Origin: Lytechinus pictus
Taxonomy: Eukaryota
Assembly: GCF_037042905.1 (NCBI RefSeq)
Contig: NC_087251.1
Location: 37,512,001 to 37,576,000, forward strand
DNA: 64,000 nucleotides
Reading direction: 5' to 3'
Part shown: positions 34,057 to 37,152 of the stretch, in pieces
Position numbering within the stretch: the first letter of the stretch is position 1
Layout: every line of letters starts with the position of its first letter
Notes under the pieces: generated by a model
Database searches by the model: none
The model's input: the letters and a program-made list of their open reading frames with translations, nothing else
What the model was told of the DNA's origin: nothing
Position numbers and translations under genes: made by a program

Positions 34057-35254
34057 GTGAGTGTGTTTGATTATTTTGAATTATCGTAAAAACAGGTTGG
34101 AGGAAGAGGGATGGTTGATAAATTCTTGACCTTAATAAGATTTTATTCTTACATGTTAGATCCAAGATAGATGCATATTTGCTCAGATCGTGATGGATTT
34201 ATATAGGGGGATTGTGTATAGGCCTACTTGTTGGATGTTTAGCAATAGTTATTAAAACTGGGGTAAAGAAAAAGCATGGAAAAAAAATGCAGACAAGCTG
34301 TGTAAATTCGATCACTGCAATAATGAACAGTTTATTGCATGATTTAGGATGTCAGAAGATACAAATGTCAAGTGAGTATGCGGATTAAAGTGTGGGTGAG
34401 ACCGCCCTCTAGAATCTTAGCAGCTTTCCTTCATTTTCTATATTCAGCTCAATATCTATTCAAATCCAATGTTATAAACAGAATTAGTGTACCAGTAGGT
34501 GGAAATATTCAAGTTGAAGAAATTATTCAAGCCTAGTTTTATGTATTTTTTCGTCTCTACTGGCAGTTCTGAGGCAGATTGCTGACATTCAAGAAATTAT
34601 GTATTCTATCACAACAGAGGGTGTTGGACCTTTATTGTGTTTTTCCCCCCAGAAATGTAGGAAATCTTTAAGCACAAAACTTGTTTATGTTCCACTTTGA
34701 AAATATTGAGGTGGGAGGGTTAAAACAGTTTACTGACATACAAAGAAGGACCTTAGGATGAAGACATGAAAATGAAATACATCTTGAATGAGATGCTTTG
34801 TCTCTTGGTATTTGCCCAAAAGTTACCCAAACATTTAAGGAAACAGAAAGTAAGATGTAGTTGGGGAATATATCTTTTGCTATAAATAATCCCATTCTGC
34901 CTTTGCAACAAAAAATATAGAACAAAACATTACTCATTTAACAACAATGTGATGTGATTATAAAGACTAAAATATGACTATATAAAGACTTGAAAAATTA
35001 ACATCTTTAAAAGTGATAAGACATTTACAATGAACATACATAATATATAATGATGAAAAAAAGTACAATCAATATAAAGGACAGGTGATACTGACACTGA
35101 TTCATTATGTCTCGCCTTAGAATACAGCTATGAATATAGAAAATGTTTTCTTCATGTCATTACATCCAAGTCAGAATACGAAATTCTACAAATGATATTT
35201 TATCATGTAGTAATTGTGTGTATTTGAATTTTGTCAGACATTTATCAATCAGAT

Positions 35255-35391
35255 ATGATTATTTACGTCTGGGACCGACCTTTAACGTCACCATCCGAAA
35301 GACGTGACCAGGGCTCGAACCTCGAACCTCTGCATCAATTTGTAACTTCCCCACATAGCTTGGATTACAGGCGCACGCCACAACGCCCAGA
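35255..35391 (-). mobile_element. SINE-like element with a 7SL (SRP RNA) Alu-domain head, B box and Deu-like core
   Basis: Minus strand reads CTGGGCGTTGTGGCGTGCGCCTGTAATCCAAGCTATGTGGGGA...GGTTCGAGCCC...CGTCTTTCGGATGGTGACGTTAAAGGTCGGTCCC. Single copy in the window, no clear TSD, 3' end uncertain. Confidence 0.6.
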
Positions 35392-37152
35392 TGAAATTTA
35401 ATATTTTAAAATAGGTGTTTAATAAGTTATCTAATGAACATCACGTCTTAACGATGACATTGAAATCAATCTACACCATGCAACACTTCGTAGTCATAAC
35501 ATGTACCTTCATTTCTGTTGGTAATTGAAATATTCTGAATTTCATCGGCAAATATGTGACTCTACGTCTAACCTTTTCCAGCATGATATTGTGACACATG
35601 GGAGTATCATCTTTGAAATTGATGAAAATTACCAGGGTTGTAAAGCTTGAGTCATTCCCAAACAGTCCGGTTAAAGCAGTGAATGTTTTCAGTCCCACAT
35701 GAATAATATGACGTCAGTACAGACCTGGCTTTTTATGCTTGCTCTTGCCTGTCGGAGCACACCCCTCATTGTCATTGTTTGATGTGACTGTCGCTCATGC
35801 AGTGAAAGTGGGATCACCATAGTTCAAGGGAGCATTTCATCAAACAAATAGTCCATAATGTTGTTATAAGCTACTGAAATCCTTGCATCTGATTGGCTCA
35901 GAACAAAATTGACAGTGAAAATAATTGACTGTGTTTAATTGATCCCCCCGTAGTAGAGGGCGAAGTGGTGTTGTACATGCACCTCTAATAGGATTCATTT
36001 GTATTAAGTCATCTGTCAAAGAAAATAGGTTAATGTATGTCACTTACGTTAATTTTTACTTGTGAAAGTCGCTTGAAGTGGGTCAGATGTCCAACCATGC
36101 CTTTTCTGTCACTCAATAACAGGATGTGGTCTTCCTTGAACAGTTCCTTACCTGAAGTTCTGAACTCTTAATTTTTATGTCAGACAGTTGTAGTAACACA
36201 GTGCTTGCGTGTTAGATGATACTACCTGTCTACTTGATACCCCAATCATATTAGATTTACCACTCATTGTCTGATAAGACAGTAAAAATGCCAATGCCAT
36301 GTGCGAACACGAAATTTGTGATTGGTTCATAGTGTCTGGGAATAAGGCAGACCCCTATTAAAGTTATAGACAAGAATTTGTATTTGATATTTGAAAAGAA
36401 ATAACTTTAGAATTCAATATTTTTTTGGTTTGATACAAATAGCATTCCCTGTACTATTATTTCTTTTGACGTCTAGGATGTTATTCTGTCTGTGCCCCAT
36501 AGTGTCGAGCTGTGACATTTATATTCTTGAACTATTTCTCTTAAATGCATTGTTTCATCTATGTCTTTGGTCACATCCTAGGATATCGAGGAATGAAAAT
36601 GGACGCGATTTACACTCTATCTTGTCTCGTTCCCCCTTCATTTATTGCTCTTCTACTTCATTTCCCTTCTCCCATCAAGAAATGACCGCACTGCCAGCTG
36701 TTTCTACATTTCACCACTCTTAACCCATCTATTTCTGGAATGACAAAATTTTGTACTACATGTATAAATAAGCGAGGTCCCTGTTCTTGCTTTGATATAG
36801 CCACATTCTACAGGAGGCAGTCCTGTGTTTTTGTAACCCATTTCAGTCGCAAGTTTGTTGTCACGTTTGACATTGTATGGTGAACACTTTGAATGGCCAG
36901 CCTGCTTTAATTTTTTTTTTTGAAGGATTCCTATTTGCATTTGCCATGGAGGACATGAGACCTTTGTTGCTCGTAAGAGCAAGTCAAAACAAGGTTTGTT
37001 GATCATTTACATTGTAAGTGAATACAAACAATATCTGCAGGAAACAGATTCATATTTAAACATATTGAATTAGAATTTGTATTTGAAAAATGAACTGTAC
37101 AGTATGCCAATGTATAGATAGGCCTATGTGGATCCGGAAGGTACATTAGGAT

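Follow-up and report, generated by a model that had tools for sequence, protein, structure and literature searches.

A dispersed SINE family of the sea urchin Lytechinus pictus with a head derived from the 5' end of host 7SL RNA and a probable Deu-type body

The 64,000-nucleotide stretch of Lytechinus pictus DNA analysed here (contig NC_087251.1, positions 37,512,001 to 37,576,000; hereafter the window) carries on its minus strand, at 35391-35215, a 177-nt full-length copy of a dispersed family of short interspersed elements (SINEs), with ends taken from alignments of copies. We consider it highly probable (roughly 0.85) that this element is one of ~1,400 copies of a sea-urchin SINE in which the 5' end of the host's 7SL RNA is followed first by a B box, then by a short core of Deu type and lastly by a 3' hairpin and an (AC)n tail, and that RNA polymerase III (pol III) likely transcribes the family, the 7SL piece of which is predicted to bind SRP9/14, and that the family would be copied by a long interspersed element (LINE). 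A 7SL-derived SINE at 35255..35391 had been proposed in an initial annotation of the window. The minus-strand sequence quoted there agrees with the window letters and its 5' end at 35391 is right, whereas the 3' end really lies at 35215: the proposed range stopped inside the 3' hairpin and missed the (AC)n tail.

At permissive settings, the metazoan signal recognition particle (SRP) model was the top of eight weak Rfam matches in 35150-35500 (25.5 bits, E 6.3e-05), with model positions 1-48 aligned to 35391-35344, and this comparison, which the initial annotation had called for, agrees with its assignment. The second match, mir-1268, falls on the same Alu-like stretch of the head. The SRP score is low because only 48 of the 299 model positions are present in the element; it lies under the family cut-off of 70, and at Rfam's own thresholds no RNA family is matched in the whole window. 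The host genome (811.7 Mb, 368 contigs), to which all genome counts below refer, holds seven full 7SL genes with scores of 272-283 bits. A bindin gene in this genome (Pfam PF02084, 236.7 and 53.1 bits) agrees with a sea-urchin host, bindin being an echinoid protein. Compared with the 7SL genes and with the cut-off, the element, whose alignment takes in only the ends of the model, does not qualify as a full 7SL gene or a retropseudogene. There are 18 weaker SRP matches in the genome, and all 13 that were examined are copies of this SINE.

The head was also compared with the host's own 7SL genes. From base 4 through base 30, its majority form shows no difference from them. Local alignments that start at base 1 have 34 of 35 identical columns with the 7SL gene on chromosome 12 (score 63) and 34 of 36 with a gene on chromosome 10 (score 60); none of 1000 shuffles scored above 28. 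A 27-nt core occurs once in the window and never in 100 shuffles. The head had first been recognised by its likeness to a vertebrate 7SL sequence; its derivation from 7SL is borne out, with the host genes fitting better, and the head has the sea-urchin-specific 7SL letters, not the vertebrate ones. This preference for host over vertebrate 7SL supports an origin of the head that would be independent and internal to the lineage. In helix 2, a paired change (ACU...AGU) is common to the SINE and the chromosome-12 gene, while the other six genes read ACC...GGU, which makes a gene of the chromosome-12 type the likely source of the head.

We also considered that the head might be tRNA-derived, a chance look-alike or primate Alu contamination. 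The downstream B box and an Rfam score far under the SRP cut-off could be taken in this sense. However, Rfam gave no tRNA match up to E 10 in 35150-35500 and ARAGORN found 0 tRNAs in the window, and no tRNA model fits the head; a tRNA-like head, the mark of SINE2 elements, is absent, and just the B box and a weak T-arm remnant are left. Contamination is contradicted by the host-specific 7SL letters and by copies that sit in unique flanks on chromosome-scale contigs. We regard this explanation as extremely improbable.

The likeness to 7SL extends to base 47, close to the ~45 nt given by the initial annotation. Beyond this point, the body scores 15 against 7SL from base 48 to its end, and 553-568 of 1000 shuffles score as well; the Deu-like body was therefore rejected as a diverged piece of 7SL. 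The 3' part of 7SL is absent from the element, which thus differs from SINE1 elements in that both 7SL ends are not kept. What the head retains of 7SL are helices 2-4 and the UGUAAU turn of the Alu 5' domain, including the stretch that matches box A of 7SL and Alu, placed here by analogy with Kojima (2020, PMC7245038). In the minimum-energy fold of the 49-nt head, helices 3 and 4 appear, and these are the two helices named in the initial annotation. From its sequence, the head would fold as an Alu 5' domain and is predicted to bind SRP9/14. The suggestion that the element keeps the Alu-domain fold would thus hold for the 5' domain, whose letters are kept, and not for the 3' part of the domain, which is missing. 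For the whole element, the folding z-score is -0.64.

Table 1. Parts of the SINE copy in the window (positions of the window; all on the minus strand).
Feature	Position	Strand	Basis
Full-length SINE copy, subfamily with 7-nt duplication	35215..35391	-	Copy alignments with flanks
Head, 47 nt of the host 7SL RNA 5' end	35345..35391	-	Rfam SRP model positions 1-48 and near-identity to 7 host 7SL genes
16-nt linker, head to B box	35329..35344	-	Unlike 7SL
GAGGTTC tandem duplication with B box GGTTCGAGCCC at its end (35321-35311)	35311..35330	-	Sequence
Short Deu/Nin-type core with GTCACG, TCTTTCGGATG, TTAAA and GGTCCC blocks	35271..35308	-	By-eye comparison with BivaMD-SINE1
3' stem-loop, outer stem 7 bp, inner stem 6 bp	35235..35271	-	Fold and genome matches
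3' end, 13 nt ACAAAATTCAAAT and short (AC)n tail	35215..35234	-	Copy alignments, tails of varying length

The element belongs to a family of many copies that share the same 5' boundary at the start of 7SL, as the initial annotation had asked to see. With 35230-35400 as query, the genome gave 1,837 first-look candidates, and 40 of these, when scored, yielded 48 matches at 89-100% identity on many contigs. With up to 3 mismatches allowed, the 38-nt 3' hairpin has 1,430 matches (717 and 713 on the two strands); with up to 2 allowed, the 32-nt joint of head and body has 759, of which 365 are forward and 394 reverse. The control had no match in either case. Among 20 perfect hairpins without a perfect joint, 18 had the 7SL head with small variants of the joint and two were 5'-truncated. 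Linker and body were found behind upstream sequence other than 7SL in three matches, compared with the 759 joints. From these hairpin, joint and linker counts, we conclude that the head/body joint is fixed across a family of roughly 1,400 copies.

The ends of the element were fixed by aligning 30 and then 20 other copies with their flanks, the 20 being sampled irrespective of the remaining element. The 5' and 3' ends are common to 30 + 20 + 20 sampled loci, as they should be in a SINE. Among 20 sampled copies, the 5' start falls at the exact first 7SL base in 12, differs in the first 1-2 letters in 4, and lacks 5-9 nt in another 4, and the family length is 170-181 nt plus tail. At most sampled loci the flanks are unrelated and lie on many chromosomes, the (AC)n tail varies in length, and some copies are 5'-truncated. 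Exact flank repeats of at least 8 nt occur in 13 of 65 copies, compared with 3.0% in a mismatched-flank control, and repeats of at least 10 nt in 7 of 65, compared with 0.4%; artefacts account for three of the 13, namely a tandem array, a poly-C run and a non-adjacent word at the window copy.

These features bear on whether the copies could have spread mainly by duplication at the DNA level, through tandem arrays, segmental duplication or co-amplification with a satellite, instead of retroposition. There are tandem arrays of 2-4 units, six loci that share both flanks and four copies in a satellite-like unit of ~150 bp, all of which would fit such a spread. However, it would not account for unrelated flanks on many chromosomes, variable tails, 5' truncations and an excess of target-site duplications, nor for both strands being hit equally by hairpin (717/713) and joint (365/394). 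We therefore consider it very unlikely as the main route, and favour retroposition.

Copies of the family are young. Divergence from the majority in 20 copies amounts to 57 of 2,938 non-CpG sites (1.94%) and 8 of 360 CpG-site positions; the corresponding counts for the window copy are 2 of 144 and 1 of 18. The youth that had been proposed for the element is therefore supported at ~2% divergence between copies. The SINE lineage itself appears to be much older than this young burst, since 7SL head, Deu core and hairpin can be made out even in strongly decayed copies (C12:1.19 Mb; C13:27.5 Mb).

Several local arrangements of the copies were also recorded. At C19:10865260-10865949, C2:17634186-17634686, C8:17842739-17843089 and C1:22736819-22744448, two to four SINE units follow one another head to tail, with (AC)n and 2-4 nt at the junctions, and one array has a 2.5-kb period with one SINE per unit. 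The four copies in the satellite-like unit lie on different contigs at the same spot of the unit, and in two copies of one host repeat the SINE and a hairpin-only mini-element (described below) are found at exactly the same site. Such shared spots possibly reflect a target-site preference of the LINE, or co-amplification.

Other copies lie close to the host's 7SL genes. A diverged SINE copy is located ~35 nt upstream of each of the three 7SL genes in the chromosome-10 cluster (C10, ~7.91-7.92 Mb; L031:877-1050, 1290-1466; L035, L036:1315-1466), between a conserved distal promoter-like block and the proximal block of these genes; the three chromosome-1 genes and the chromosome-12 gene have no such SINE upstream. 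In 6 of the 7 genes, a B-box/T-arm-like piece, GGTTCGAGTCC, follows just past the T-run terminator (L031:1815-1845, and the equivalent position in L032-L036). This piece may be left over from a tRNA or provide an additional TFIIIC site, and it resembles the B box of the SINE within the box itself only.

Turning to the body, the doubled GAGGTTC that the initial annotation had linked to a B box is real in the window copy. We name GGTTCGAGCCC a B box on the basis of a consensus that we take to be GGTTCGANNCC. The doubling is not family-wide: it is the trait of a subfamily to which 7 of 20 sampled copies belong, two of them being variants with altered letters, and the motif is single in the other 13 of 20. 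The core that follows had been likened to the Deu domain. Set against BivaMD-SINE1 as printed by Nishihara et al. (2016, PMC4824008, Supplementary Fig. S1B), it has the four blocks of Table 1 in common with the Deu part, and a count by eye gives ~30 identical columns out of 42. The likeness concerns only the beginning of the domain, as just the first ~38-45 nt of the published 70-330-bp Deu domain (PMC4824008) are present in the SINE.

The 3' hairpin is stable. In its family form it folds at -13 kcal/mol with a z-score of -4.43, and none of 200 shuffles folds as well; in the window copy, two changes in the 3' arm weaken the outer stem. The same fold is found in a hairpin-only mini-element of ~60 nt with an (AAC)n tail, for which there are 368 first-look candidates (e.g. 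locus L058:293-331, minus). Two pair changes, each on both sides of the stem, preserve the fold of the SINE hairpin in the mini-element, and these compensatory changes suggest that the RNA structure of the hairpin is under selection. The sequence just 5' of the hairpin varies among the examined mini-element copies, except in copies inside shared host repeats, which suggests that they are extreme 5' truncations. Some of the mini-element copies are located within a larger repeat.

RNA reads from the same species show that members of the family are represented in RNA. In a public run index, four runs of this species hold 98-99% of the words of 34800-35800, while runs under a second species label hold 12-27% of these words, which is about the SINE share. 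Runs with small shares of the words, among them one labelled echinoderm metagenome, are not used as evidence. Reads were mapped to 34800-35349, a range that takes in just the last bases of the SINE head. Two stranded RNA runs depleted of ribosomal RNA reach a depth of ~1,600 at 35237-35293, with a depth of 0 in each of the 21 bins of the flank between 34800 and 35198. The first mates lie ~27 times more often on the plus strand than on the minus strand. In most stranded libraries, a first mate on the plus strand comes from RNA of the minus strand, so that the bias indicates RNA of the SINE sense strand.

The reads also allow one source of this RNA to be placed. About 60% of them (1,065 of 1,745 and 1,060 of 1,787 reads) continue past the tail into one and the same flank, a 30-mer of which has a single occurrence in the assembly, without an adjacent SINE (C2:8300326-8300416). 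Most family reads thus come from one expressed insertion that is absent from the assembled haplotype. The first run of four T lies 66 nt into the flank of this missing insertion, which would suit the predicted read-through by pol III. The insertion site on chromosome 2 lies 15 nt before a splice-acceptor-like TTGCAG. In both RNA runs, ~50 reads enter the adapter at the head/linker boundary (35345-35346) and ~50-60 at the start of the tail (35217). These short inserts may represent a head-less RNA species of ~130 nt, or a stop of reverse transcription at the folded head.

In the second species, 2,113 contigs were mapped and covered the SINE part only (8 of 29 bins); 903 of them are at least 99% alike, and one extends into the last bases of the SINE head. 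The second species therefore also holds the SINE family.

How might such an element be propagated? The GGTTCGAGCCC B box lies ~50 nt downstream of the 7SL-derived box A stretch, which is identical in the SINE and the host 7SL genes, so that the pol III boxes are present at the level of motifs and would form an internal pol III promoter. The SINE has no internal run of four T, and pol III transcripts, meeting no terminator within it, would run into the flank. The head, folded as an Alu 5' domain, would then bind SRP9/14 and bring the RNA to ribosomes that are making LINE protein. What the LINE reverse transcriptase picks out would be the 3' hairpin together with the (AC)n tail. A hairpin followed by a microsatellite tail is typical of a SINE 3' end that is shared with a LINE, but no LINE with this end was found in the searches described below. 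We propose the SRP9/14 step on account of Moldovan, Yin and Moran (2025, PMC12199147), who found that Alu retrotransposition requires a 46-nt 5' Alu domain and that this domain associates with SRP9/14 and is able to promote retrotransposition, and of the argument that Kojima made for the hagfish element (PMC7245038). As to origin, the reverse transcript of an older Deu-type SINE may have switched template onto a 7SL RNA, probably from a chromosome-12-like gene; template switching is the model given for Deu SINEs with 5S heads (PMC4824008).

Alternatively, the 7SL piece could serve as a pol III promoter and 5' end only, with no role for SRP9/14 or the ribosome, and copying would rest on LINE recognition of the hairpin and (AC)n tail. 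A stable hairpin that a second element preserves by compensatory changes is characteristic of LINEs that recognise their own tail and perhaps need no handle on the ribosome, and Deu SINEs with tRNA and 5S heads have spread without any 7SL piece (PMC4824008, PMC3747384). However, the SINE retains the whole 5' domain and no more, and its 7SL piece ends within 1-2 bases of the 46-nt domain to which SRP9/14 binds in human cells (PMC12199147). Box A alone would need ~15 nt. At bases 4-30, the majority form shows no difference from host 7SL. Kojima (2020, PMC7245038) argues likewise for the hagfish element, which also has a LINE-type tail. On balance, we think that a purely promoter-related role is rather unlikely, and prefer a head that would act through SRP9/14.

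Several observations weigh against the reading developed above. The head does not fold with a better energy than shuffles do (z 0.24), but neither do real 7SL 5' ends (z 0.10-0.55). Among the 65 copies compared, 52 have no exact flank repeat of at least 8 nt, i.e. no clear target-site duplication, and none that is convincing was found at the window copy, where the sole shared word (8 nt) does not adjoin the element. The initial annotation had cautioned that it saw a single copy with no clear target-site duplication or tail; family and (AC)n tails are now in hand, and its caution about the duplication still applies to the window copy. Some copies lie in tandem arrays or duplicated segments, so not every copy represents a separate insertion. 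As for the RNA, the reads show the family letter at the three sites where the window copy departs from it (e.g. 1,607 of 1,609 reads at 35242); the RNA therefore comes from other copies, and expression of the window copy is not supported. The missing insertion is documented by one junction, on one side only. Finally, the family RNA could be part of a polymerase II transcript, and no sharp starts or ends were reported for the reads on 34800-35349.

On the same side of the balance are the searches for a partner LINE and a parent SINE. Four context-restricted pattern searches for the LINE returned only truncated or mutated SINE copies, the hairpin-only mini-element and three copies without a 7SL head 5' of the linker. 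Hairpin patterns that exclude the letters upstream in the SINE gave only mutated or truncated SINE copies and the mini-element with its (AAC)n tail. With the SINE 3' terminus behind a different stem, there were 5 matches, which were hairpin-less, mutated or flank-only, with no LINE among them. At the 14 + 7 loci that were examined with 4.5-6 kb of upstream sequence, no reverse-transcriptase open reading frame (ORF) was linked to the element. One ORF, at a distance of 2.3 kb, encodes a LINE-type C-terminus, with an RVT_1 score of 16.7 bits that falls short of the cut-off. Its family is very abundant, with 7,870 first-look candidates, and has open frames of as much as 1,141 aa. This family was rejected as the partner: the hairpin is present at 0 of 30 of its loci, and 16 of the 30 end in (TAT)n, in a run 103-160 nt past the ORF match.

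A tRNA-headed parent SINE with the same linker and body was not found at up to 2 mismatches; there were three matches behind other sequence and no abundant family with a different head. Two further loci that apparently had other heads turned out to be truncated SINE copies. The initial annotation had proposed that a 7SL head was fused onto a DeuSINE body. With no tRNA-headed parent found, fusion onto an older DeuSINE stays a conjecture about the ancestry of the family.

Kojima (2020, PMC7245038) and Kosushkin et al. (2026, PMC13023118) give supraprimates, a shrew mole and the hagfish as the only animals from which 7SL-derived SINEs are known, and state that all of these SINEs kept both 7SL ends after a central deletion, put at ~183 nt in the latter paper. 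The sea-urchin SINE has much in common with Alu, FLAM, B1 and Tu of supraprimates and Urop of the shrew mole: they too start at 7SL base 1 and have the Alu 5' domain with its UGUAAU turn and internal pol III boxes (PMC13023118, PMC7245038). These elements, however, consist of 7SL sequence only, with both ends left by the ~183-nt deletion, and are moved by L1 with a poly(A) tail (PMC13023118, PMC7245038), whereas the sea-urchin SINE has no 7SL 3' part and adds foreign body modules and a hairpin with an (AC)n end.

The closest parallel is SINE1-1_EBu (Ebu1-1) of the hagfish Eptatretus burgeri, as described in parts of Kojima (2020, PMC7245038). Similar to the sea-urchin SINE, its head comes from the host's own 7SL in a chimera with older SINE/LINE modules, its 3' end is of LINE type with a microsatellite tail instead of poly(A), and it is young, with a few thousand copies in hagfish. 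The two differ in how much 7SL they contain. SINE1-1_EBu has the first 96 nt and ~44 nt of the 7SL 3' end, and thereby, after a central deletion, a whole Alu domain, with 7SL's box B in use, while the sea-urchin SINE has 47 nt and a foreign B box. They also differ in that an RTE partner was identified for SINE1-1_EBu (PMC7245038); for the sea-urchin SINE, which has a Deu-type core and an invertebrate host, the partner LINE was not found in the searches above. The 46-nt minimal 5' Alu domain assayed in HeLa cells (PMC12199147) has nearly the same extent as the 47-nt head. That domain is an engineered deletion of human AluY assayed with L1, in contrast to the natural family described here from its sequence.

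The body has parallels of its own. In AmnSINE1, SINE3 and OS-SINE1, a small-RNA head sits on a Deu-type body, sometimes with a partial tRNA remnant between them; their head is 5S ribosomal RNA, and the vertebrate Deu domain is ~330 bp compared with ~40 nt here (PMC4824008, PMC3747384). Deu/Nin-type cores are also present in SINE2-3_SP of a sea urchin and in BivaMD-SINE1 and BivaDeu-SINE1 of bivalves, the Deu part of BivaMD-SINE1 being ~70% alike by eye (PMC4824008, PMC3747384). These three elements have tRNA heads, and SINE2-3_SP is set beside our element by description only (PMC4824008, PMC3747384). In the parts of a bivalve SINE survey that deal with heads, these are tRNA-related only (PMC11481361). 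By the homology of its head, then, the sea-urchin SINE is of the 7SL-derived kind; it departs from the rule that both 7SL ends are kept, and adds a Deu-type body and a LINE-type tail.

It is quite possible, though distinctly less than evenly so, that Repbase or Dfam already lists the family among sea-urchin SINEs (e.g. SINE2-n_SP), with its head given as tRNA or unknown, in which case only our reading of the head would be new. SINE2-1 to SINE2-8_SP, including the Deu member SINE2-3_SP, were curated early (PMC3747384, PMC4824008), and as a second species holds the family, it could be in the library of a model species. The family may therefore go under another catalogue label. Against this, a Repbase curator wrote in 2020 that well-defined 7SL SINEs occur only in Euarchontoglires and hagfish (passage in PMC7245038), and the 2026 paper agrees in the part that adds the shrew mole (PMC13023118). 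Our searches of full-text literature, to which Repbase, Dfam and SINEBase did not belong, found no 7SL SINE with a Deu domain, and none from a mollusc, invertebrate, sea urchin or echinoderm.

It is tempting to go one step further and speculate that an echinoderm has independently built a currently active SINE on a minimal 5' Alu domain of 46-47 nt, fused to a Deu-type body and moved by a LINE other than L1; we would call this a little short of an even bet. If true, no earlier 7SL-derived SINE would be known from outside vertebrates, nor any that lacks the 3' half of the Alu domain, and hitch-hiking on SRP9/14 at the ribosome would be a general strategy that is independent of the LINE clade and needs only a small fold. 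Independent births of 7SL SINEs are very rare, and those of hagfish (2020) and shrew mole (2026) were each used to ask why the Alu domain is kept. The sea-urchin family would extend this comparison beyond vertebrates, as a natural deletion experiment in which the 5' domain only is combined with a LINE-type tail. Because sea-urchin embryos are easily injected and the family is seemingly transcribed and polymorphic now, whether docking through SRP9/14 helps LINEs other than L1 would become directly testable.

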